Of a stretch of 64,000 nt of DNA, positions 3,504 to 62,394 are shown piece after piece (positions within the stretch are counted from its first letter, which is position 1; every line of letters starts with the position of its first letter). The stretch is from Alphaproteobacteria bacterium UBA6376 (GTDB taxonomy: Bacteria > Pseudomonadota > Alphaproteobacteria > Rs-D84). A program made the position numbers and the translations under genes. The notes under the pieces were generated by a model. That model worked only from the letters and a program-made list of their open reading frames with translations, was not told the origin of the DNA and made no database searches. The stretch covers positions 80,364 through 144,363 of the forward strand of contig DJQW01000002.1 in NCBI GenBank assembly GCA_002437665.1. Reading direction: 5' to 3'.

Positions 3504-6500
3504 TCCCAATATTTTTCCAGACGGACTGACACAAACCTTGCGCGCTTTGTGTTCCTGTAACGATGTTGCGCTGGCAATCCATGATTTTGTATCAGCATCT
3601 TCCTTGGCAATGAAATGTGGACGCAGGTACACAGTGCCGCTGCTGTTCAATTTTTTTACACGAAAAACAACATTTACTTTATCTGTTTTCTCTATTGCAC
3701 ATTGATGTGCAACTGTTTCCACCAGCCCTTTTGGTAATTTTGGATCGTCTTTGGAAAATTCCGCCATTACCATATCATTTATACGCAAACTCATTATGCG
3801 CTTTGCTGTGGCATATTTATGACGCCACAGTGGTGCACCAGCATTTAATTGGGCGTTATAATTAGATAAAATCTCCACCTGCCAGCGACCACGCAATTTT
3901 GGATAGCGGGTATCATCATCACGAATTTCAAATATCTCTGCACAGAAATTATTACCACCAACATACCACTTGTACGCCTGCTTGGCAGCATCTTGAAATT
4001 CTTGCAACAAGTGTTTTTCTTTCTCTTGTTGAACAGCACGCAATTTTTTATCCACAATTCCACTGGCAACGCCAGTATTTACATACCAATTCAAATACGC
4101 GGCACGGTAAACGTCACGCTGTTTTTTAGTTCTGAACACAGGCACGTATGTCGTAACATCGACCCCCGTTTTATACATACGAACCTTGCGTATATTTCGC
4201 ATTGCACACCAATCCAAAAACTTGATTGCAATGTCTGGTTCTTCGTTTGCAACACCAGCATCATTCAAAAACATTTGCAGTGTTTTCGGATTCACATTTT
4301 TGAAATCCTTTGCAAACGCTTTTTTGTCTTTATCTGTTGTGGGCAGTTCTTCACGATGCGACATAACCGCATTGACGCCACATCCCCCATCTTCAAAACA
4401 TTCCAGATTATACGCCGTATCCTCATGCAAACATCCAACCGTACTATGTGCATCTTTCGGATTCTTTTGAGATTGACGGTATGAAATAATAGTATTCTCG
4501 CACCGCATTTTGAAATCAAAATAATCAAACCCAGGGAAAGGGGTATGCATATCAGATTTTGCATCAGCTAGTTTCCGCAATATGTTCTCATCAGTACAAG
4601 CAATGACAAAAGCATCAATCGCATGATGAATGTGATTGCCACGGTATTTGGATTCTTCCGCCTTATTCTTCCACCAATTCAAATGCCATTCATCGCGCAA
4701 ACTAGCCGTCAACCGCCCTGGCATACCGTTCACACGATTTTTGTCTGCACACACATGTTGTAAATATGTGACCGCCATACGTGTCATAAATCGCGTATCA
4801 TTCATTGCACGCGCAATGCACTCTTTGCCTTGCAGAAACACATCCATCGCCCCACGATTAAAACGCCATTTCGTAGCATCTGGCAAATTTTGAGCACGCG
4901 CAACCACATCCTCGTATTTCCATGGTGACTTTGGGTCTGAAAAAGCTTCATCTGGGCTACGGTTTCCTTTGAACCGGTTGGCAACGGCCGCAGAAATCGT
5001 TTTATTTGCCATCGAGTCATCAAGTGTACGTGAAAAAGGCAATATATGTTCTATTTCAAACTCTGGGCTAAACAGTTTTTCCTTACTAATTATCTCACCA
5101 GTATAAACGCATCTACGATCCAATGGACTTTTTCCCAAATTCTCCCACAACTTATATTTCTGTATATTTTCACGACAAACCCGAACGCCCATGGCGACCA
5201 ATTCAGTGGCAATACGGTCATTTTCACGCTTATTCGCGGCCTGTTGTTTTTCTATTTCTGCACGTTCATCTGCACCAGCTGATACATCACGCCCCATTTC
5301 AATATTTATTGCATATGGCTCGCCATCAAAACGCGCAATCAAATCGTTGACAACTGCGCGTAACTGGTTCAATGCAATGTGAACCGTGGCATTCATCGTA
5401 CGATAACGCCCCATCTTATCTTGAACCAACGATGGACGTAAAGCCATGACATCGCCATAGTATGGCAATGTATCTAAATGCACTATTCCCCTATCAGCAT
5501 GATCATAACCTGCTTCTTTTGCCGCAATGTGATACAAATGCCCCTGTTCCAAGAACGGCAACATTTTTTGCATTGCACACACAGACAAATTTGCAACCCC
5601 ATCTTCAAACGGTTGCTGAATTAATTTTTCTGCTTTATCTTGCGAAATACCATATTCATGCGCCAGATAATCCACCAAATCAGAATCGGACAATTCATCA
5701 TCATTCAGATGTGCCAAAACCTGCGATTTTACATTATCTGTACAAGCACGCCAGAAATCTGCCAATTCACATTCAGCAAATGCAAATGCCGTTGCATCAA
5801 CATCCATATCCTTACGCTTTTCAGATTCCAGATTAAATTTTGTATTACGTGATAAACCCAACAACTTCTTAACTTCCGCAAATGTTATCTTGGGACGCCC
5901 CGACTTATCACGTTTTACCCCACAAAATGTAGCCAGTAAAGCATCTTGCAACTTTTCGCGCTGTTCTGCGGTCAATTCCTTTATTTCGCCATTGTTGATA
6001 ATTCGTAATTGATTTATCTGTTGCAGAACACGAAAACGCTGAAACACAGGTTCAAATTTATACGCACGTGGCTGATCTAATTCAAACATGCACGTTCCAA
6101 TTTCTGGTGGCACCAACGGTCGCTGATGAAATATAGCATATTCAAACTGTTGCCGCATGTCATCTGACATATTTTGTACTGAACATATACGATTAAATTC
6201 GTCAAGGTACATATCACGCGTCGGATAAAGAGCACCATCTTTGATTTTATTACCATCAAATTGATCTGCAAACCGATAACGCTTTGAATCCACCTGAAAT
6301 TCACCCAAGGTTTTATCACCTATGGCATCATGCAATGCCAATGTCGCCTTTTTTAATTTGCCACCAGAATCCCCTCTGGTTTCCTTGCGATTACTTTTGA
6401 AACCACGGCGCAATGCCAGATGAAATAGAACACGCCCCAACTCTGCGGACGACAGTTTATCAGAAACCGCCCTTGCACGCAAAACATACGGATCTTCTAA

Positions 6501-7023: not shown

Positions 7024-10000
7024 TTAGAAGCGGTATGATCCGGAAACCTTGATATTATGCAGTTGAATATCTTGGTTATACTGGTAACGGTAATCCAGAC
7101 CAATCTGCAAGCCACTGGCCGACAGCATTTCTACGCCACCGCCGATGTTCGCCCACATTGGATCGATATCAATATCATACTTTGTGAACGAATTTGCGAC
7201 CGAGAATTTATATTTCGCGTTGTCTGGCGCGCCCAACACATCGTATTCGATTCCGATTGTCGCATATGGGCGAATCTGGAACCATGCCGATGGATAGATA
7301 CGCTTTTGCGCGGTCAACGAATACCCAGGTGTAAAGATCAGATACCCGTCGGATTCCATGTCCATATAATCGTGGCCACGGGCCTTTTCCGTCAGCGAGA
7401 ATCCAAAGTTATACCCAACGCGCGCATACATATTGCCAACAACATACTGGTTCAGCCAATCATGCAGCAAGCCCCATTCACTGGTGAATGCAACGTCATA
7501 GCCCGTACCATCAATCGCGCCATTTATATATGTCTGGTGACGTGTGGTATCCAACACATGGATGTCCAAGAACGCATTACCATAAACGCGTGTTTTTTCG
7601 CCCAATGTCTGCATCAAATAACCACCCAGACCGATGTTGGTATCTGCAACCTTGACATCAACATTGCCGGCGATGAACGGATTTTCAACGGTATAGCCCA
7701 AATTCATAGAATCCGAGTTGTCCGCCGACATGTGCGATATACGCCCTGTCAACCCCAGAATCAAAGTTTCAGAATGCTGCCAGTCAAATCCACCCGCGAC
7801 GTTGATACGGTTACCATCAACGCGTTTGCCATCGGACACTTTCTGGTTGAACATACCAAATTCCGCATCAACCCATGCCTTTTTCAGGTTGCGGTTACGA
7901 TTCCAGATAAATTCGTCAAACATGCGGTCTTCGAATGAACGGAAATTAGTGTGTTCATTCAAGACAATGCTGCCCACGACCTGTTCGATTTCACGTGGCT
8001 GAACCAAGCGGCTGAAACGTGACAACGCCGTACCATCGCGATTCGTATTATAATCTTCCATACGCTTGTACAGTTCGTTGCCCAACTGTTCCAGATTTGT
8101 GCCACGGAATATCACAGGCAACATTTCCAGCGCATGACGACCATAAAATCCCTTGCCAGCGGCCGCGCCATCCAACATGTCGTCCAACGCGCCTGCGGAC
8201 ATATATTCGCCACTGGTGTGCCCTGGGGTGCGGCCAACAATCGGCTGAATCTTGAACACCTCTACCGGCCCACCAAAGCGTGGATCAAACACCAAATAGA
8301 TACTGTCGTCAATACCATCACCGTCGGTATCACGCACGGTCAGGTATGCAGAATCCGCATCAACCAGCGCACCGCTGAAATAGTCATAACACATCGTGCC
8401 CGTATTGTTGCACACAACAACGTTCAGATTGCGCAGTTTATCGCCCAATTCTGTGATGCCATCGTCTGCATGTACCAGCCAAATTGCATCGCCCACCGTT
8501 GCCAATTCACGCAACGCAACACCAATCTGATCGGTCGCATTTGCAAACCCAGTCGATGGATTACGCGACAGCGTCAAATCAGATGTGAACGCACCATCAA
8601 CCTGAATCAATGCACCCGCATTGCCGTCTGTGGCGTTTGTGATGCGCCCCAGCGTGTTATCGTCCGCCAAACTGACCGATGACCAGTAATTGCGTGTTGG
8701 TGCGGTCAGCACATCACGACGTCTGACATCAACGTACAGGCCACTGTCGTTATCAAACAGATAGTTGCCACCAATCGTCATTTCTTGCAAGCCACCAAAG
8801 CGCGCGCCGCCAGAAACATTACCGGTAACGCCCACGGTCAGGCCCGCGTTTGAATACACACGCATGTTTTTGACGTCAATATTACCCGCAACCGTCAGGT
8901 CAGTCGTATTGATGTCCAGCGCACCCGATGTTTGCTGAATATTACCGCCCACAATCACATTAGACGCAGACAGTGCATAACTGTCGCCGGTGATATTTGC
9001 ATCACGCACCGCGATTGTCCCAGCATAATTCTGGTACAAGTTTTTGACTGTAAATGCACCCGCAGATTTCATACCCGCGCCCGACAATGTTGCCGTGCCA
9101 TTATTGGCAAAGTAATCAACATTTGCCACATCCGCGCCCGATGCAATCGTCAAATCGCCATCATTGTCAACCGCACCCAGTGTCATACCACGTGCCGCAT
9201 TCAGTGTCAAAGTACCCTTGTTTGAAATGCCCCCAAATGCGATGCTGGAATTTTCAGACGAAATCGACGTTGTCGCGCCCGCCGCAACATTCGCCGCGCC
9301 GGTAAATGCGACCGCGTTTTTAACGTCGTATGCAACCGTACCGGTGTCGGCCATCAACGCGCCAGTGGCTGTCAAACTGCCCGCGGTGACGTTTGTGTTG
9401 CCAACAATGCTCAGCCCAGATGCCGCCGCACCTGCAACGTCAGATGCGTGTGTTATGTTACCCGCAACAGAAATCAAATCATCAGACGTGATTGTTGGCG
9501 CATTGATAACCGCACTGCCCCCCGACACGGTCAGCATCGCCATATTCAATTTTTCCGCCGAAATATTCAGTTTCAGATTTGATTCAATCGCACCCGCGGT
9601 AATAGAATCCGCCGCAACCAAATTCAATGTGCCGGTATTGTCAATCTGGCCAATGGTCAGGTCAGACGCACTGTTGATATTGGCGTTACCACTGCTGGCC
9701 AATGCGCCCATATCAATGGTTGCGCCGTTGATTGTCAATGTGCCGCCGTTGCTGGTCTGGCCACCGATTTTAGCGGTGCCCACCGCATCAATTTTAACCG
9801 TGCCATTGGTCGCCAACGCGCCATCCATTGTGAAATCTTGGTGTGACGTCAATGTCAACGTTTTACCATTGGCGATTGTCACGCTGTCAAAAGACATGCC
9901 CCCCACGCTGGTTTCCATGGTGTATTCGTTGCCACTGATAACCATTCCGGTCATCCCCCATGTCGGCGTCGCATCGTTAAACAACAATTCGCCACCAACA

Positions 10001-16439: not shown

Positions 16440-17040
16440 TTATACTGGATTGTTTTGCATTAAATTCCCCTCTATTGGAGGGGGGGCCGCAGGACGGGGT
16501 GGTCGAGAGAACGCGTAATTATAGATGCGTGCTTTCTGACAAAAGACCACCTCCCCGCTACGCGGTACTCCCCCACAAGAGGAGAACTTTGTCCGCAACA
16601 AGAATGAGTATTACATTCTAGAAACTTGTCATTCCCGCGCAGGCGGGAATAGGGACTAAGCAGTGCGAACGTAGTGAGCCAAATACAAAAAAGTTGCGGT
16701 CTTTATAATTTTCGTAAATTGTACATAAACGAAAATTAGTAATTTCAGAGACCCTATTCCTGCCTGCGCAGGAATGACAAAGAGGCGTGCTGCGCAACAT
16801 TATCAACTGGATTGCTTCGTTACACTCGCAATGACGTTGTTTTTTGCATGTGTCGCCTGCGGGCTAACGCCCTTGCCGCATCCTGCGCTTCGCTTGGATT
16901 CATTGCGAGGAATGAAATGACGAAGCAATCCAGTAAATAAAAAAGTGCGCCGGTGGCGCGGCTCTCTTATTACCTGGATTCCGTGGTCGAGCCACGGAAT
17001 GACAAAAAGGTAAGTCCGCAGGCGACACATATGCAAAAAA
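16440..17040. repeat. Cluster of mosaic intergenic repeat modules (NIME/dRS3-like). It includes ATTCCCGCGCAGGCGGGAAT at 16626-16645 and ATTCCTGCCTGCGCAGGAAT at 16756-16775. It also includes TGTCATTGCGAG..GCAATCCAGT units in both orientations and a ~115-bp structured module at 16478-16595.
   Basis: Related modules recur at 13786-13817, 30270-30700, 33100-33235 and 48890-49075. Confidence 0.8.
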
Positions 17041-26360: not shown

Positions 26361-26518
26361 GATACCTTTCCCTTGTGTACGTTTTTTGTTTTATTTCTGG
26401 CGAAATCATACCGCGATTTTTAATCCAAGGCAAGATTATACTTACTTTTAATATTGACAAAATTTACATTTTGTATTATACTATGTTCCCCAATATGAAG
26501 TTCAGAGAGGTATCGATT

Positions 26519-27019
26519 ATGAAAAACGGAAATATTATAGAGATTTGCCCAGGGGCATTTTTGGACATGGCGGTTGCCAGTATTCAACCCGCCAAAACGG
26601 TGAACCCACTCGCGCGCCATGACAATTTTGTCCGTGGCACTGACATTTATATGTTGGATTCATTTGCCAGCAAAACAAAAATGAAAAACGCCGCATTCGT
26701 ACGTCGTATCAAAGACGCCATCACAGAGGCGCGTGACATTTTAAGTGGTGGGTTTATGGACGTAATTCCAACAAATTGGAAAATTGCACGCGATTGGAAT
26801 CGCCCACGCATCGACGTCTATGTAAATTGCCCAGATGCCACATTGTCCGACAATGCGCGCGCGGCATTGGCCGAATTGGCACGCGCGGCCGCCGCAGGCG
26901 TAAAAATCACAGCGCACATCACCGGCAACCAGACCGGCGCGATTGCACGCGCATTATTGGCGATGGAACAATTCAGTGCCGACCGCACATTCCGCAACAC
27001 AACAACAAAACAGCGGTAA
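26519..27019 (+). CDS. Hypothetical protein (166 aa).
   Basis: ORF with an upstream promoter-like TTGACA...TGTATTATACT. The start is chosen at the internal Met MKNGNII. A bidirectional terminator follows at 27022-27052. Confidence 0.45.
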   Translation: MKNGNIIEICPGAFLDMAVASIQPAKTVNPLARHDNFVRGTDIYMLDSFASKTKMKNAAFVRRIKDAITEARDILSGGFMDVIPTNWKIARDWNRPRIDVYVNCPDATLSDNARAALAELARAAAAGVKITAHITGNQTGAIARALLAMEQFSADRTFRNTTTKQR

Positions 27020-27045: not shown

Positions 27046-28455
27046 TTATTTCTTTTTATTTTCTAACTTTTTCAATGTATCCGTCGCATCCGTGGGCTTT
27101 TCATCCGATGTACCGTCACACGTTGCCGCGCGCGTTTTTAACTTTGACATCGCACGCACCATGTCCATACCGCGTTGCAACTGGTAATCTTGGGCATCTT
27201 TTTCTTCATCAGACAATTCAACCTCTTCGTCATCATCGGACTTCTTGTCTGCTTTCTTTTTTGCATTTTCATTCTTTAATGCGTTTTTGAAAGACGCCTC
27301 TGAATACAAACTTTCGCGACGTTCAATGGTTTCAATCTTGCTCTGCAAAACCTCTACGTCTGGGGTAATCCCCTCGTTCTGGATTGAACGACCGCTGGGG
27401 GTGTAATAGCGCGCGATAGTGATATGAATCGCCGTCCCATCACCCAGTGGTTTCTGCTGCTGCACACTGCCCTTGCCGAAACTCTGTGATCCCATGACCA
27501 ACGCGCGGCCATTGTCCTGTAATGCGCCCGCGACAATTTCAGACGCCGATGCCGACCCGTGGTTTATCAGCACAACGATTGGTTTGCCATTCGTCATATC
27601 ACCAGATTTCGCCATGGCGCGTTCAATGTCCGCCGCATCTTTGCCACGCGTCGACACAATTTCGCCACCATCCAAAACAGCATCCGCAATATCAATCGCC
27701 GCCGTCAAATAGCCCCCTGGGTTATTACGCACGTCAATCACATAGCCAATGACGTTTTTCTTTTCCAATTTTTCAATCGCATTGCGAAATTCCTTGGCGG
27801 TCGTTGCCCCAAAATCAGAAATACGAATATAGCCGATTTTTTCGTTCGAATCTTCGTCCGCATCGGCAATCGTCTTGTCATCAAATTTGACCGATTTCAC
27901 CTTGATAATCGCGCGCTTTAACGTGACATCACGCGCATCTTTGCCATCGGACAAAATGGTCAGTTTCACCTTTGTCCCTGGGCGACCTTTCATCTTTTTT
28001 ACCGCCTGATTCAATGTCATATCAAACACCAATTCGCCATCAATGCTGGTGATATAATCGCCGGCCTTGATGCCCGCCTTGGCCGCGGGGGTATCATCAA
28101 TCGGCGAAATAACGCGAATTGCGCCACGGTCACTGGTAACCTGAATGCCCAAACCGCCAAATTCACCGTACGATTTGTCGTTAAATTCTTTCAAATCGTC
28201 CGCCGACAGATACGATGAATGCGGGTCAAGTGCGCCCAACATACCGTTCATTGCGGCCTCTAACATCTTTTTTTCATCGGCCTCTTCGACGAAACTGTCG
28301 CGTGCGACATCGAACACCAGCGCAAACTTTTGCAACTGTTCATAAATCTGTTCATCCGTCAGGTGTACAACTGGTTCTTCTTTCTTTGCCTTGCCCGCGG
28401 CGATGGCCGTCATTGGCACAGATAACGCAACCAAGACCAAAAATTTCTTTAACAT
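27046..28455 (-). CDS. ctp: Carboxy-terminal processing protease (S41, Ctp/Prc-like) with a PDZ domain.
   Basis: Signal peptide MLKKFLVLVALSVPMTAIAAG. PDZ and S41 motifs (GGLGIQV, ...LINHGSASASEIVAGALQDNGRALVMG...). Lys-rich C-terminus. Confidence 0.88.
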   Translation of the reverse strand: MLKKFLVLVALSVPMTAIAAGKAKKEEPVVHLTDEQIYEQLQKFALVFDVARDSFVEEADEKKMLEAAMNGMLGALDPHSSYLSADDLKEFNDKSYGEFGGLGIQVTSDRGAIRVISPIDDTPAAKAGIKAGDYITSIDGELVFDMTLNQAVKKMKGRPGTKVKLTILSDGKDARDVTLKRAIIKVKSVKFDDKTIADADEDSNEKIGYIRISDFGATTAKEFRNAIEKLEKKNVIGYVIDVRNNPGGYLTAAIDIADAVLDGGEIVSTRGKDAADIERAMAKSGDMTNGKPIVVLINHGSASASEIVAGALQDNGRALVMGSQSFGKGSVQQQKPLGDGTAIHITIARYYTPSGRSIQNEGITPDVEVLQSKIETIERRESLYSEASFKNALKNENAKKKADKKSDDDEEVELSDEEKDAQDYQLQRGMDMVRAMSKLKTRAATCDGTSDEKPTDATDTLKKLENKKK

Positions 28456-28622
28456 TTTTGCTTTTCCCCTTGCCTTTGATACAACAGGCATACCATAAAC
28501 CAAAAAGGCCGCACTCGCAACACGATTTTTTGACTTTTTTGCACAGATTTTGCCCAACCCCCTACGCCGCAAACACTTGACAAAATATTTTTCTGGGCTA
28601 TATTATCAGTACGGGTGATTAC

Positions 28623-29348
28623 ATGACAAAGACACAAAATTATAAAATTCGTATTGAAGAGAACCGGCAACAGATAACCAACATGTTATCCGGCGCGGAC
28701 ACGCACAAACGGTTGAATAACATCAACTGGCTGCGTCACGAATTGTCGTACACCGAACCGCGCACATTGTTTTACGTGCCGTCGCGGGAACAGTTGCCCT
28801 ATCTGGATTACAACAGTATGAAAAATCTGGGCACGGCATACGATTACATCATCGACAACCCCGACACAATTATCGACATTCCTGAAATTTGCAAATTGCA
28901 CAGTATGTTATGCGCTGGCACGCCGATTCAGGGCGGCTTGTTCCGCAACACGTCCAAGGTTTTGGAACTGTACGTTGACGGCAACCGCATTCATGCACCC
29001 GAAGCGTCGGAAATTCCATCAAAACTGAACGAAATCGTATTCAGATTCAATGACCGTAACACAAAAACACTGACGCGCGCGTTTAATGCGCATTATGACC
29101 TGATTATGTTACAGCCATTTGATGACTTTAACAAACGCACGGCGCGCCTGATTATGAATTGGTTGCTGATTCAGGGCGGCTATCGTCCCGTTGTATTTAA
29201 CCAGCATTCGGACAAGCAGAAATACAAAGACGCCATCGCCGCCAAGGCCGCTGGCAATCACAAAGAATACATACAATATATGTCCGCATGCCTGTTGCGC
29301 ACACAAAAAGAAATAATCGACCTGTTAAAGAAATCGCGGGTGCTGTGA
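28623..29348 (+). CDS. Fic/Doc-family protein with a degenerate active-site motif (QPFDDFNKRTAR in place of HPFx[DE]GNGRxxR; Doc-like NKR).
   Basis: Fido-fold-like C-terminal region (...AFNAHYDLIMLQPFDDFNKRTARLIMNWLLIQGGYRPVVF...). The stop overlaps the start of the next gene (TGATG). Confidence 0.55.
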   Translation: MTKTQNYKIRIEENRQQITNMLSGADTHKRLNNINWLRHELSYTEPRTLFYVPSREQLPYLDYNSMKNLGTAYDYIIDNPDTIIDIPEICKLHSMLCAGTPIQGGLFRNTSKVLELYVDGNRIHAPEASEIPSKLNEIVFRFNDRNTKTLTRAFNAHYDLIMLQPFDDFNKRTARLIMNWLLIQGGYRPVVFNQHSDKQKYKDAIAAKAAGNHKEYIQYMSACLLRTQKEIIDLLKKSRVL

Positions 29349-30268
29349 TGGTCAAGATAAAATCATTAAATCATGGTCGGGAAACATATGCGGTGTATTA
29401 CGGCAAAGATTTCGTGCTGAAACGCCCACTGCCCAACATGGGTCAGGCCGCGATGGACGCATGGTTGGTCAAACAGCATAAAACCCAGACCGCCATTGAC
29501 CGCATTCGCGCCGTCGGCAACCCACTGTACAACGTGCCCGAAATGCGATTCATCAACGACGACGAATACCAAATTCTGGAAGAACGCGCCCCGGGACAAC
29601 CACTGGGCCGCGACCTGTATCGCAAATTATCGCGCCGCCAGCGTTTTGAAATCATCAACAGTTTGGGCAGTTTTCTGGTCGACATGAACGAATCCATGCC
29701 GATTGGCGACACCCAAATGCACAAAATTGCCGAAGAATTAAAGTTCAACCGCTTGGACAACTTTATCGAAACCAAGATGTCAAATTGGTTCACCAAAAAC
29801 GAAGTAATCCAAATGGCGCGCATTCGCGACCAAATCGGCACATTTGAATACCCAACGCGTATGGCGTGGTCACATTGCGACCTGAACGCGGGCAATGTCT
29901 TGTACGACCCCGACACCAGCAAATTATCATTCATTGATTTTGCAGAGGCCGGATACCGTTTTATCTATCGCGACATATTCGCGTCGTTACAGATTGAATT
30001 AGGCATATTCAAACAGGTCTATGACGTGTACACCAAAATGCATGCCAAGAACCTGTGGTCTATGCCCAGCGCAAAGAACGACACCCTGCGCGACATTATG
30101 AAATACCGCATTATGGTTGTGTGGCTGAAACGCTTTATCAAGGCGGCCGATGACCTGCGCACGACGCCCCAGAACGCCAAGAGCGAGAATAACAATCTGG
30201 AAAAACTGGCATTTATGCGCGAACAAATGATAAATTTCCAAAATCTGGAACGCCAGTTTCAAAAGTAA
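29348..30268 (+). CDS. Aminoglycoside-phosphotransferase/protein-kinase-like fold protein (APH/CotH/HipA-like superfamily).
   Basis: Catalytic-loop-like motif WSHCDLNAGNVLYDP followed by SFIDFAEAGY (Brenner motif HxDxxxxN plus a DFG-like IDF). Translationally coupled to the Fic-like gene. Confidence 0.55.
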   Translation: MVKIKSLNHGRETYAVYYGKDFVLKRPLPNMGQAAMDAWLVKQHKTQTAIDRIRAVGNPLYNVPEMRFINDDEYQILEERAPGQPLGRDLYRKLSRRQRFEIINSLGSFLVDMNESMPIGDTQMHKIAEELKFNRLDNFIETKMSNWFTKNEVIQMARIRDQIGTFEYPTRMAWSHCDLNAGNVLYDPDTSKLSFIDFAEAGYRFIYRDIFASLQIELGIFKQVYDVYTKMHAKNLWSMPSAKNDTLRDIMKYRIMVVWLKRFIKAADDLRTTPQNAKSENNNLEKLAFMREQMINFQNLERQFQK

Positions 30269-30269
30269 A

Positions 30270-30700
30270 AGTTCCCCCGCATTGAAAGGGTGGCGCACAC
30301 CTGTGCGACGGGGTGGTCGAGAAAGCCCGTAATTATAGATTGAGGTTTTCAGGACAAAAGACCACCTCCCCCTATCGGGTACTCCTCCACAGGAGGAGAA
30401 CTCAGTCCACAACAAGAACGTAGCAAGTTCCCCTCCGGTGGAGGGGTGGCGCGAACGCGACGGGGTGGTCTTTTATTTTGCTCGCGTTGCTCGCACTGCT
30501 TAGTCCCTATTCCTGCCTGCGCAGGAATGACAAGGGTGCTTTGTAAAGAAAATACGCAGTCCGCAGGCGACACACGTGCTAGAAACTCTGTCATTGCGAG
30601 GAATGAAATGACGAAGCAATCCAGTAAATAAAAAAGTGCGCCAACGGCGGACACACTCATTGCTCTCTGCTCTCTGCGCTTTGCTCTCTGTCACAGCGTC
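30270..30700. repeat. Second cluster of mosaic intergenic repeats. It has ~115-bp structured modules (1.5 copies at 30304-30480), ATTCCTGCCTGCGCAGGAAT at 30513-30532, TGTCATTGCGAGGAATGAAATGACGAAGCAATCCAGT at 30589-30625, and CTCTCTG short repeats at 30660-30700.
   Basis: Shows 80-95% identity to the modules in 16440-17040. Confidence 0.8.
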
Positions 30701-30732
30701 AGCGGAGACGGTTCACTTTATCACTAATAGTG

Positions 30733-31803
30733 TTATTCTTCTTTGAACAATCGGGCGGGATCAACCGCGGCATCGCCACGGCGAACCTCCAAATACATTT
30801 CTGGCTTGTCGGGATTCATGCGACCAATCGGTTCGCCCGCCAGAACATCTTGGCCAACCATAACGTCGATATCGCCCAAATTCGTCATAACCGTGTTATA
30901 CCCATTCTTGTGCGACATAATCACAACACGCCCGAATCCGCGAAAACTGTCGGCAAATTTAACCGTGCCGTCCGCCGGCGCAAGCACCAGTGCATCGCCA
31001 CGCGTGCGAATGCGCCAACCATCTGATTTCAGCCCCAGTGCGGTCTTTTCGCCAAAGTGCACCACCACGCGGCCGCGCACCGGCTGGTTCAATTTACGAT
31101 ATGAAAAACGTGCATCACCGGACATTTGCGAACTCCCCACGCCGGCGGACAATTCCGAAATACTTTTTGCGCGCGCCGACAATTCACGCAACTTTTTTTG
31201 CAGGGCTGCCTGCTCGCTCTTTAACTGCTCGTTCTGGGCGGCGCGCGTACGCAACAATTTGTCCAACTGATTCTTTTCCGCGGCGTATTTTTTCGCGGTG
31301 CGGTCTAACTTTTCCTTTTCAATCGCGCGCGCATCACGGATTTTCGCCAATTCTTGGATTTGCTTGGTGGCGTTTTGAATTTCGTCATCGAATCGCATTG
31401 CCGCCCCAGACAACACCGCCGACGTCAAGACATACTCGCGCATATTGTCGGTATCAAAACTGGGGTGCGATGCCACGAACAATATACTGGCCGCCGCATC
31501 AGAAATACGCGTCTGGTTTGCATCCAACGATTTCTGCAACTTGTCACGCTGGGCATCCAAATCCGCAATTTTGCGCGCGACCGCGCCGCGTTGCTCTTCC
31601 AAATTGCTGACCTGTTCACCGGCGCGCACCAGTTTCTTTTTGGTGGACGCAACCTCGCGCTCCGATGTCTGAACCCGCTGGGTCAGTTTTTTGTTTTGCG
31701 CCTTGGTCTGCTCGATCTGGGCATTGATGCGTGACAGTTCACTGGTGGCGCGCACAGGGCACGTCGCCAATGCAACCATCAAAAACAGCACCAATTTTTT
31801 CAT
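30733..31803 (-). CDS. M23 family metallopeptidase with an N-terminal coiled coil (EnvC/NlpD-like).
   Basis: Signal peptide, long coiled-coil region, and a C-terminal LytM/M23 domain (…PVRGRVVVHFGE…GWRIRTRGDALVLAPADGTV…). Confidence 0.8.
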   Translation of the reverse strand: MKKLVLFLMVALATCPVRATSELSRINAQIEQTKAQNKKLTQRVQTSEREVASTKKKLVRAGEQVSNLEEQRGAVARKIADLDAQRDKLQKSLDANQTRISDAAASILFVASHPSFDTDNMREYVLTSAVLSGAAMRFDDEIQNATKQIQELAKIRDARAIEKEKLDRTAKKYAAEKNQLDKLLRTRAAQNEQLKSEQAALQKKLRELSARAKSISELSAGVGSSQMSGDARFSYRKLNQPVRGRVVVHFGEKTALGLKSDGWRIRTRGDALVLAPADGTVKFADSFRGFGRVVIMSHKNGYNTVMTNLGDIDVMVGQDVLAGEPIGRMNPDKPEMYLEVRRGDAAVDPARLFKEE

Positions 31804-33098
31804 TATTTTTTCACAACGCGCAAGAATGTTTTTTTACCCTTTTGCACGATGATTTCGTCCGCCGGCGCAACCATGTGTTTCGGGTCTATGATTTTTTCAC
31901 CATCCAGTTGAATACCACCCTGTTCCACGTTACGACGGGCCTCGGACTTGGACGTGAATAATCCCGCCGCGCACAAGAAATCCAAGATACCCATTGCCGC
32001 ATCAAATTCAATTTGTGCCTGTGGCATATTTTCGGATTTTGCGCCGCCACCAAATAACGCGTCCGCCGCATCTTGGGCTGCAACCGCCGCATCGTGACCG
32101 TGCGCGATTTCCGTCGCAGCAAACGCCAACACGCGCTTTACCGCGTTCAGCTCCGCCCCGCGCGCCGCGGCCAGACGCGCAATTTCGTCCAATGGAATTT
32201 CGGTGAAAATCTTCAAGAATTTTTCAACCAAATCATCCGGCGTATTGCGGAAATACTGATAGTATTCATATGGCGACGTTTTTTCTTCGTTCACCCAAAC
32301 GGCGTTGCCGGCGGATTTACCAATCTTGTTACCATTGGCGTCCGTAATCAACTGGGTCGACAGGACAAAAACCTCTTTGCCACATTTTTTACGCACCAGT
32401 TCAACACCCATAACACAGTTGCCCCACTGGTCTGCGCCACACAGTTGCACCGTGCATCCGTATTTTTTGTACAAGGTCAGGAAATCGACCGCTTGGAATG
32501 TCATATAATTAAATTCCAAGAATGTCATACCATTTTCCAATCTGCGGCGAACACTTTCCATACCCAGCATACGTGGCACGGTAAAGTCCGTTCCAAATTC
32601 GCGCAGGAAATCCATATGGCTGTACCCAGACATCCATTCGTTGTTATCAACCATCACCGCGCCAGTCGGCGTGCCATCAAAATGAATAAACTTTTCGATT
32701 GAATGGCGCAACCCCGCACAGTTATGTTCAATTTGTTCGTCGGTCAACATCGGACGCCCCTTGTCGCGACCCGATGGGTCACCAATGCGCCCCGTTGCAC
32801 CACCAACCAACGCGATTGGACGATGACCATATTTTTGAAACCAACGCATCAGCATCAGCGACGCCAAATGCCCAACATGCAAAGAATCCCCCGTTGGATC
32901 AGTTCCCCAATATGCCGTCACATGACCCGCATTTAACGCATCATTCAGCGCATCCATATTAGACGCCTGATTGATAAAACCGCGCGCCTCTAATTCCTGT
33001 AATAATTCGTTTTTCATTTGCAAATTCCTTATGTCCACAATGCTAGCAGAGTTTCGTCCCCCGCGCAAATGTTTTATATCGCGACGGAGCGTAAACAA
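31803..33098 (-). CDS. tyrS: Tyrosyl-tRNA synthetase.
   Basis: HIGH-like motif (SLHVGHL) and a KMSKS-like motif (KIGKSAGN). C-terminal S4-like domain. 431 aa. Confidence 0.92.
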   Translation of the reverse strand: MFTLRRDIKHLRGGRNSASIVDIRNLQMKNELLQELEARGFINQASNMDALNDALNAGHVTAYWGTDPTGDSLHVGHLASLMLMRWFQKYGHRPIALVGGATGRIGDPSGRDKGRPMLTDEQIEHNCAGLRHSIEKFIHFDGTPTGAVMVDNNEWMSGYSHMDFLREFGTDFTVPRMLGMESVRRRLENGMTFLEFNYMTFQAVDFLTLYKKYGCTVQLCGADQWGNCVMGVELVRKKCGKEVFVLSTQLITDANGNKIGKSAGNAVWVNEEKTSPYEYYQYFRNTPDDLVEKFLKIFTEIPLDEIARLAAARGAELNAVKRVLAFAATEIAHGHDAAVAAQDAADALFGGGAKSENMPQAQIEFDAAMGILDFLCAAGLFTSKSEARRNVEQGGIQLDGEKIIDPKHMVAPADEIIVQKGKKTFLRVVKK

Positions 33099-61812: not shown

Positions 61813-62394
61813 TTATTTACGTTCCAAAATGCCATCAATCAGGCCGAAATCTTTGGCCTCGGTCGGGTTCATCCAGTTATCACGTTCCATCGCATCAAAC
61901 AATTCTTGTTCACTGCGACCGGTGAACGACGCCATTTGTTTAATCAACGTCTGTTTGTTCTTTTGATACTGGGTCATGCGGATTTCCATATCGGTAATCT
62001 GGCCCTCGGCCCCAGCCAATGGCTGGTGAATCATAATCTGGGTGTTGGGCAAAACGAAACGTTTCCCATGTGCCCCCGCCGCCAGCAAGACAGAACCCAT
62101 CGACGCGACCAACCCCATACCGATGGTTGATACCGGCGATTTAATATACTGCATCGTGTCCATAATTGCCCACCCCGCGGAAACATCGCCACCAGGGCTG
62201 TTGATATAGACAGAAATTTCTGCATTTGGATTTTCGGATTCCAAGAACAACAACTGCGCCACAATGCTGTTCGCCATTGTCGGTTCAATTTGGCCGTTTA
62301 TCATAACAATACGATCACGCAACAGGCGCGAATAAATATCAAACGAACGTTCACCACGTGGTGACTCTTCGATAACCATTGGTATCAGTGCCAT
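61813..62394 (-). CDS. clpP: ATP-dependent Clp protease proteolytic subunit ClpP.
   Basis: Canonical ClpP (…[11 protein letters not shown]…[14 protein letters not shown]…). It is upstream of clpX. Confidence 0.97.

Follow-up and report, generated by a model that had tools for sequence, protein, structure and literature searches.

To our knowledge, every catalytic Fido-fold enzyme with the Fic motif that has been characterised relies on the histidine of that motif as its general base (PMC4454073, PMC4177925). Among the known systems closest to the gene studied here are the class II Fic AMPylases (FICD/HYPE, C. difficile Fic, BT_2513) and Doc, the Fic-fold kinase of the phage P1 Phd-Doc system, which phosphorylates EF-Tu. 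In Doc, whose motif is defined as HxFx(D/N)(A/G)NKR, a lysine forces ATP to bind in an inverted manner, so that phosphate and not AMP is transferred (PMC4177925). A further group, clade D2, was described in silico by Khater and Mohanty in 2015 from 45 uncharacterised bacterial single-domain sequences sharing the consensus Qx[F|Y]x[D|E][G|V]NKR; the authors argued that selection acts on this clade and that it is probably functional (PMC4454073). Here we analyse a Fic-like gene with a related motif, and the kinase gene beside it, in a 64,000-nucleotide (nt) stretch of Alphaproteobacteria bacterium UBA6376 (contig DJQW01000002.1, positions 80,364 to 144,363, forward strand; hereafter the window). 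The organism belongs to the order Rs-D84, the genomes of which are for the most part smaller than 1 Mb, with a reduced metabolism (PMC12306168).

Gene 1 (28623..29348, + strand) encodes a 241-amino-acid (aa) Fic-fold protein of the Gln-NKR motif class, and gene 2 (29348..30268, +) encodes a 306-aa kinase of the aminoglycoside phosphotransferase (APH) fold. The original prediction, made from the sequence of the window, saw in them a probably inactive or repurposed Fic scaffold coupled to a kinase in an accessory context, perhaps as a dedicated two-part or defence system. We found instead that the two genes are real, conserved and uncharacterised, but that they do not make up the new two-part system which had been suggested. 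What stands out most at the locus is the Gln-NKR active site of the Fic-like protein, which is fixed in minimal genomes.

Gene 1 scored 48.1 bits against the Pfam Fic profile PF02661 (cut-off 24), which places it in the Fic/Fido superfamily, and its closest relatives of solved structure were FICD/HYPE (E about 3e-13 with the single sequence and 1e-19 with a family profile). In the alignment with FICD, HPFIDGNGRTSRLLMN faces QPFDDFNKRTARLIMN, with the His replaced by Gln and the two Gly by Phe and Lys, and with the Asp, the Asn and both Arg retained. The active-site motif of gene 1, defined by the FICD and family alignments, is QPFDDFNKRTAR (Q164 to R175; 29112..29147, +). It stands in place of HPFx(D/E)GNGRxxR, and gene 1 accordingly lacks the canonical AMPylating motif HxFx(D/E)GNGRxxR with its catalytic His. 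An AlphaFold model made with 38 homologues had a pLDDT of 88 and was closest to FICD (TM 0.78, E 2e-10), followed by BT_2513 and C. difficile Fic. The Fic fold with a His-to-Gln change and a Doc-type NKR had been read correctly from the sequence. The model also contains strands at residues 113-118 and 121-124, which form a predicted beta-hairpin flap (residues 113-124; 28959..28994, +); in the 38-member family alignment R108 and P126 around it are invariant, and A125 is nearly so. The flap is the target-docking element of Fic enzymes, and Doc has no such hairpin (PMC4454073). As far as the predicted structure goes, gene 1 would thus have the flap of the AMPylating Fic proteins.

The replaced residues are a property of a whole family. 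Fic homologues fell into 172 clusters, and among the 120 listed, which were 46-98% identical, 113 carried Q-x-F-x-D-x-N-K-R, in full Q-P-F-x-D-[FYC]-N-K-R-x-x-R (the motif of the other 7 was not read). The alignment of 38 members had 27 invariant columns, including the entire motif (Q164, P165, F166, D168, N170, K171, R172 and R175). A profile search of 1.84 billion representatives gave 40 with E<=1e-30, and every one of these with a readable motif had Gln...NKR except P0266, which has the canonical HPFPDGNGR; P0274, a 92-aa fragment among the 40, gave no motif match. Beyond that threshold, the matches were a mixture of canonical class II Fic proteins with HPFxDGNGR and of Gln-NKR proteins at a greater distance. 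When species-representative genomes, one for each species, were scanned, 121 matching stretches encoded a Fic relative, and in the 80 loci that we examined the Gln-NKR motif was present 79 times. The Gln/Lys motif is therefore fixed across almost all members examined, and decay does not explain it. Because every other active-site residue is invariant, the label of a probably inactive scaffold is doubtful.

The sole family member that we found with a catalytic His (HPFDDYNKRTSR) is encoded at 7890-8696 of locus L067, from the rumen metagenome-assembled genome (MAG) RUG11949 (CACYHO010000004.1). Its identity to the window protein is 45%. The ctp and M23 peptidase genes that also flank the window pair are present at L067, and a kinase gene is absent. 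It may be a natural Gln-to-His “revertant” or the ancestral state; an assembly error is also possible, because Gln and His codons lie one base apart.

The nearest His-type relatives point to the origin of the family. They share the sequence WL+SELSYT with the Gln family and continue into an inhibitory stretch, TSNAIEGNTLT, which MAFFT aligned to a 12-residue gap in the Gln family, such that the canonical inhibitory (S/T)xxxE(G/N), which class II Fic proteins carry on an N-terminal inhibitory helix, is missing there. The invariant Glu45, within SYTEP, is kept in the Gln family; a manual alignment had suggested it as the inhibitory Glu, an assignment that we dropped because MAFFT places the whole inhibitory motif in the gap. 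It follows from the shared and missing stretches that the Gln-NKR family probably descends from a class II (FICD-like) Fic protein that lost the canonical inhibitory motif and gained its Lys independently of Doc. Other uncultured bacteria (loci L087-L091; for example, L090:6001-6786) encode a further, distantly related Gln-NKR Fic family (QPFSDANKRTAR, about 260 aa; tblastn identity to the protein of the window 27-28%) in a conserved gyrA-ppiase-(ankyrin-repeat genes)-Fic-recJ context. No kinase gene was found near the Fic genes of these loci.

Gene 2 scored 39 bits against Pfam APH PF01636 (cut-off 23.2), as befits the APH/eukaryotic-like kinase fold, and every catalytic residue expected of that fold is in place. 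These comprise the catalytic loop HCDLNAGNV (29873..29899, +; H176, D178 and N183 invariant in the family alignment), the DFG-like metal-binding motif IDFAE (29933..29947, +; I196, D197, F198, A199 and E200 all invariant) and the invariant Lys25 of VLKRPLP (29420..29422, +), which lies on strand 22-27 of the model and, by analogy with the kinase fold, is probably the ATP-anchoring beta-3 lysine. The homologues form 457 clusters, HxDxxxxN and IDF are found in nearly all of the 120 inspected, and the mean column identity of the family is 72%; as with the Fic motif, chance does not account for these strings. Across loci the kinase has a median identity of 65%, compared with 76% for ctp and 73% for M23. 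With its catalytic residues complete and its evolution about as slow as that of these housekeeping neighbours, we take the kinase to be an active enzyme; the original prediction had read its kinase fold and catalytic motifs correctly.

Its relatives are distant ones. The family profile matched the APH(2'')-Ia domain (E 1e-5), and for a model of the kinase (pLDDT 89.7) the nearest Foldseek matches were APH(2'') enzymes and capreomycin phosphotransferase, at E about 1e-9, TM 0.45-0.6 and 11-18% identity. A search of NCBIfam gave no usable name, the best match (E 0.03) being confined to the catalytic loop, and a borderline match to Pfam Choline_kinase PF01633 (29.4 bits, cut-off 29) covered profile positions 141-221 of 300, which are the shared catalytic core. 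Given this low identity, the lack of an NCBIfam match and its standing as a core syntenic gene, gene 2 does not qualify as an APH(2'') aminoglycoside resistance kinase; a divergent APH-fold member, it does not appear to belong to any of the named kinase families tested. Its helical C-terminal lobe, of APH(2'')/Cph-like architecture (Cph being capreomycin phosphotransferase), points to a small-molecule substrate. The window kinase has a pI of 9.25, its C-terminal lobe one of 9.8 and its family one of about 9.1, and the Fic and kinase families alike are basic, at 9.1-9.3. Aminoglycoside kinases are acidic, and a polycationic substrate is for this reason unlikely for a basic family.

The most distant kinase relative, at 38% identity, lies in locus L142 by gap, rsmD-like, tadA-like and prfA genes; this locus has a second, different APH-like kinase 3 kb away (the two at 4917-5894 and 8703-9599) and no Fic gene. 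Two candidate readings within the window were rejected. A 326-aa version of the kinase starting at 29288 was discarded because conservation among homologues begins at the ATG at 29348, and a kinase-loop motif at window position 61975 proved to lie in a spurious open reading frame (ORF) antisense to clpX/clpP.

We then asked how firmly the two genes belong together. From the Fic side, the 80 loci comprised 51 in the order Fic>Kin, 3 in the order Kin>Fic, 9 with the kinase convergent and 17 with no kinase at the locus, so that the genes were co-localised in 63 (about 79%). Five of the 17 were clean Fic-M23 junctions, and the Fic motif was unaltered in loci that lacked the kinase. From the kinase side, Fic was adjacent in 30 (77%) of the 39 metagenome loci with enough flanking sequence and was not adjacent in 9. 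The gaps between Fic and kinase ran from -4 to 22 nt, with a median of 4, in all 76 co-directional loci, and in the three order-swapped loci adjacency was kept and the genes overlapped. Across genomes the pairing is conserved in so far as the genes are usually found together; their orientation varies and either gene can occur alone.

The overlap between the two genes is of little help in judging a functional connection. In the window the TGA of the Fic gene and the ATG of the kinase gene share a single base, the A at 29348, an overlap of 1 nt that the original prediction had noticed. However, tyrS and M23, an unrelated pair, were packed just as tightly (median gap -1 nt in 62 loci); in the window tyrS (31803-33098, -) overlaps M23 (30733-31803, -) by one base, and about a third of all same-strand gene pairs in the window lie within 25 nt of each other. 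Since tight packing is a property of the compact genome, the stop/start overlap alone is weak evidence of coupling between Fic and kinase, contrary to what had been read into it.

The arrangement of the Fic-less loci bears on which gene came first. Where these loci are co-directional, the order is M23>Kin>ctp>, with the kinase stop codon abutting or overlapping ctp. In a neighbour-joining (NJ) tree of the kinases rooted with the 38%-identical outgroup, loci of this Fic-less arrangement branched first, followed by M23<Kin>ctp>. Because the Fic-less arrangements branch first, the kinase appears to be older than Fic at the locus, and Fic seems to have come later, between kinase and ctp and on the other strand. 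By the same tree, the arrangement of the window would be derived from an ancestral order of M23, kinase and ctp on one strand. The place of Fic can also be taken by another gene: in L086 (1998-3047) and L111 (813-1880) a homologous gene of about 350 codons lies between ctp and kinase, on the same strand as the kinase and 15-45 nt upstream of it, and its product gave no match in Pfam, NCBIfam or the PDB sequences. A deep Fic-less lineage, L112, has a 263-aa ORF (4097-4888) between M23 and kinase on the same strand, with an HExxH-like SHELQHWHNE; it too gave no match in Pfam, NCBIfam or the PDB sequences.

Thus, Fic and kinase are frequent and often co-transcribed neighbours, either of which can exist without the other, and they do not form an obligate two-part system. 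The notion of a dedicated two-part or defence system is undermined by the greater age of the kinase, by the occurrence of each gene alone in roughly a fifth of loci, by the 9 of 80 loci in which the genes are convergent, by the replacement of Fic in one lineage and by the distant Gln-NKR Fic proteins that lack a kinase. Literature searches for a Fic domain together with an aminoglycoside phosphotransferase found no paper, and a search for “pseudo-Fic” found nothing specific.

In the source genome, the two genes look like a single transcription unit, on the combined strength of a promoter-like site, the 1-nt overlap and a structured terminator region. The near-consensus sigma-70-like promoter (28577..28606, +) lies directly 5' of Fic in the divergent ctp-Fic intergenic region and consists of TTGACA, a spacer of 16-18 nt and TATATT or TATTAT, with 11 of 12 hexamer positions matching (a match to the consensus only); the best promoter-like site inside the operon is weak, at 9 of 12. 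Downstream, the intergenic region at 30269..30480 (+) is a probable terminator of the two-gene unit. It contains two direct repeats of about 50 nt (30269-30318 and 30425-30470; AAGTTCCCC...GGTGGCGC...GCGACGGGGTGGTC) and ends at its 3' side in a GC-rich stem followed by the U-run UUUUAUUUU; the stretch 30262-30480 had a minimum free energy of -90.4 kcal/mol, with a z-score of -4.7 against shuffles. The “repeat cluster” that had been reported to flank the pair comes down to these two direct repeats within a folded, terminator-like intergenic stretch. An Rfam search of 28300-30900 found no RNA families. A further copy of the 14-nt core of the repeats, with 2 mismatches, occurs at window position 16491.

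The neighbours of the pair are themselves conserved. On the 5' side lies ctp (27046..28572, -), encoding a C-terminal processing (S41) peptidase (TIGR00225, 357 bits, above the cut-off); ctp and Fic diverge in 76 of the 80 loci. On the 3' side lies M23, a gene for a coiled-coil M23 peptidase that is EnvC/DipM-like by matches all of which fall under the equivalog cut-offs. The recurrent block reads PFOR(-) ctp(-) Fic(+) kinase(+) M23(-) tyrS(-) tsf(-) rpsB(-), and the 80 loci come from gut or rumen alphaproteobacterial MAGs, many of them named Candidatus Enterousia. Because this block recurs throughout the clade, and in all 80 loci examined, the locus is core, syntenic and vertically inherited within a single clade and is not the accessory context that had been supposed; no Phd-like gene, mobile-element gene or defence island was found near the pair. 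Two loci with 88-98% protein identity carry labels from elsewhere, namely, L004 (CAVGNU010000010.1, Bacteroides fragilis) and L081 (JAMPEH010000007.1, Muribaculaceae). We rejected gene transfer into these bacteria, since the labelled contigs carry the full Enterousia synteny and were probably mis-binned.

Two positions in the block vary. Between PFOR and ctp, the window has a 214-aa ORF (26375-27019, +) with no Pfam match, which is found only in the closest relatives (26-89% identity, few loci); elsewhere its slot is held by clpP or some other gene, although the rest of the block is fixed. Between kinase and M23, L003 (9711-13104), a relative with 90% protein identity, and likewise L093, have about 4 kb containing two large genes for repetitive, surface-protein-like products with GLTGSIPSGLFGN-type repeats, the window counterpart of which is just 465 nt long (30269-30732). 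The interval between kinase and M23 is apparently a hotspot for variable genes.

Taken together, these results lead us to favour, with somewhat less than even confidence, a reading in which gene 1 and gene 2 encode two co-expressed cytoplasmic proteins whose functional link is facultative. The locus would be a vertically inherited Ca. Enterousia/Rs-D84 transcription unit, composed of promoter, Fic-like gene, kinase gene and terminator and lying between the envelope genes ctp and M23. The kinase would be the older resident, catalytically complete and using ATP (or GTP). Its most likely substrate would be a small molecule, neutral or anionic and possibly connected with turnover of the envelope or of peptidoglycan; aminoglycosides are unlikely. 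Its ancestral co-orientation with an EnvC/DipM-like M23 gene and a gene for a C-terminal processing protease suggests an envelope-related role. The Fic-like gene would have been inserted later, keeping the flap, the full Fic core, the metal-binding Asp, the Asn and both Arg. Because the His-to-Gln change removes the general base and the Lys sits in the anion hole, its product would be expected to catalyse neither AMPylation nor hydroxyl phosphorylation by the known mechanism. It would most likely bind a nucleotide or phosphoryl group in the anion hole and a peptide on the flap, and could act as a binding or reader protein or take part in a reaction that proceeds without a general base; the invariance of the active site argues for ligand binding or for such base-free chemistry. 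Some functional link to the kinase, perhaps involving an interaction of the two proteins, is plausible because the genes are co-transcribed in most species, but it would be facultative.

Several points weigh against this reading. The 17 kinase-less loci were judged at the locus only, and the tight spacing in 76 loci and the adjacency that survives swaps in 3 could mean a stronger tie than we allow. The basic pI of the kinase may mirror the whole proteome and not the substrate. The envelope link is one of gene neighbourhood only, in genomes that also pack unrelated genes together, as with tyrS and M23. Finally, the order of events could be more complex than insertion of Fic beside a resident kinase, because the tree, a simple NJ one, carries no support values and convergent loci turn up in several of its clades.

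The chief competitor to a facultative link is a dedicated module, in which the Gln-NKR Fic protein would serve the kinase as a regulatory subunit or adaptor, either as a pseudo-enzyme partner or by reading its phosphorylated product, with one joint target. The narrow range of gaps in the co-directional loci, the adjacency that outlasts an order swap with the genes overlapping, and the 77-79% co-localisation from either side all speak for it, as do the restriction of Fic proteins at E<=1e-30 to loci of the kinase-carrying clade (distant Gln-NKR Fic proteins occurring elsewhere) and the invariance of active site and flap, which implies ligand and peptide binding. Yet the kinase predates Fic at the locus and is co-directional with M23/ctp in basal lineages, the 9 convergent loci imply no co-transcription there, 9 of 39 kinase loci lack Fic, and the kinase is missing from 17 of the 80 Fic loci, five of them clean Fic-M23 junctions, with the Fic motif unaltered. 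A different gene, coding for about 350 aa, takes the place of Fic in L086 and L111, distant Gln-NKR Fic proteins have no kinase neighbour, and unrelated genes are spaced as tightly; we regard a dedicated module as possible but unlikely. Less probable again is a more ambitious proposal, that Gln-NKR Fic proteins are a working class with chemistry undescribed for the Fido fold and that in Enterousia they form a writer-reader or kinase-antagonist pair with the kinase. Under it, a Doc-like inverted nucleotide or phosphate pocket that lacks a general base might recognise or capture a phosphorylated target; alternatively, it might move phosphoryl or nucleotidyl groups to or from acceptors for which deprotonation is not required (phosphate, water). 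The Enterousia protein would have been recruited beside an ancestral envelope-locus kinase. We also considered, and do not put forward, a reading of gene 2 as an amino-sugar kinase of the AmgK/NahK type, on whose sugar phosphate product the Fic protein would work as a nucleotidyltransferase.

The opposite extreme, that the genes are ordinary and unrelated, the kinase serving intrinsic resistance to an antibiotic (aminoglycoside or peptide) or acting on a nutrient and the Fic protein being a decaying or inactive chance remnant, draws on the nearest solved structures, which are APH(2'') enzymes and capreomycin phosphotransferase, and on the borderline choline-kinase score. We consider it improbable: Fic is under clear purifying selection in genomes of <1 Mb, with its 27 invariant columns including the whole motif, and the kinase is only 11-18% identical to APH(2''), has no NCBIfam match better than E 0.03, has a basic pI unlike that of aminoglycoside kinases, and resembles choline kinases in the shared catalytic core alone. 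Slightly more improbable still is export of both proteins, by a bacterium with a reduced genome and perhaps dependent on a partner, as effectors that modify host or partner proteins, like many Fic proteins and minimal kinases of the OspG/NleH type. A symbiont- or scavenger-like lifestyle has been inferred for these bacteria (PMC12306168), the catalytic loop weakly resembles that of OspG (E 0.006-0.14), and the distant Gln-NKR Fic family adjoins ankyrin-repeat genes; but the OspG matches fall under curated thresholds, neither N-terminus resembles a signal peptide (judged by eye only), no secretion system was seen in the examined parts of the window, the kinase evolves about as slowly as ctp and M23, and strict synteny in single copy is unlike effector repertoires. 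It is highly improbable that the two genes serve as a toxin-antitoxin or anti-phage defence system, with one protein (kinase or Fic) as a toxin restrained by the other. In its favour, the nearest analogue by motif, Doc, acts as a toxin (PMC4177925), and the PADLOC candidate models PDC-S04 (60 bits) and SoFic (44 bits) matched the Fic protein. Those matches reflect generic Fic-domain similarity, however, and the kinase was unmatched in PADLOC; the pair is single-copy, vertical and at the same core position in every clade locus examined, has no Phd-like gene, mobile element or defence island nearby, scored 18 against a cut-off of 38.65 with the Doc profile TIGR01550, and consists of genes each of which persists alone.

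The preferred reading, two co-expressed proteins with a facultative link, leaves the active site of gene 1 as the matter of widest interest. Its His has been replaced by Gln and its remaining residues are frozen in almost every member examined, in genomes that have shed most dispensable genes, which argues that the site does something. The family therefore offers a clean entry point to a motif class known only in silico since 2015, and it comes with natural controls in the His-bearing member L067 and in the Fic-only, kinase-only and Fic-replaced lineages. For genome scans the locus carries a caution, namely, that in compact genomes a functional pair cannot be deduced simply from a stop/start overlap and from adjacency conserved in one clade.

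Compared with known systems, gene 1 is closest to the class II Fic AMPylases, which gave its best sequence and structure matches and the nearest His-type relatives of which share WL+SELSYT with it. It has their fold, core size, flap and N-terminal helical extension and keeps the Pro-Phe, Asp, Asn and both Arg of their motif. Unlike them, the gene 1 family has Gln for the catalytic His, Phe/Tyr/Cys and Lys for the two anion-hole Gly, and no canonical inhibitory (S/T)xxxE(G/N). With Doc it shares the N-K-R of the motif, whereas Doc has a catalytic His, with Ala or Gly before the Asn where gene 1 has Gln and Phe, so that the motif of gene 1 falls outside the Doc definition. Doc, a small six-helix protein, is also about half the size, has no hairpin and is paired with the Phd antitoxin, while gene 1 has 241 aa with a predicted hairpin, scores 18 bits with the Doc profile, and has divergent ctp and not an antitoxin gene upstream. 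Because the architecture of gene 1 is Fic-like, the Lys that it shares with Doc is most likely convergent.

The His-to-Gln NKR motif class itself is not new, having been described in silico since 2015 as clade D2. Gene 1 resembles that clade in being a bacterial single-domain protein with Gln for His and NKR, and it matches the consensus at Q, F, D and NKR. It differs at position 6, where its family has Phe/Tyr/Cys in place of Gly/Val (a comparison by consensus only; the more distant Gln-NKR proteins P0368, P0371 and P0279 have Gly or Ala there), and D2 was placed with Doc (PMC4454073), whereas the gene 1 family has Fic architecture. Gene 2 has in common with APH(2'') and Cph the bilobal APH fold, the HxDxxxxN loop, the DFG-like Asp and the helical C-terminal substrate lobe; it departs from them in being basic, in its 11-18% identity and TM of 0.45-0.6, and in being a core syntenic gene of an uncultured clade without a match to a named NCBIfam kinase family. 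As a whole, the locus does not make up a PADLOC system, because Fic alone matches PDC-S04 and SoFic and the locus is fixed and vertical, and it corresponds neither to Phd-Doc nor to the AMPylating Fic proteins; the original prediction was right in seeing here no toxin-antitoxin or AMPylation module of a kind already described.

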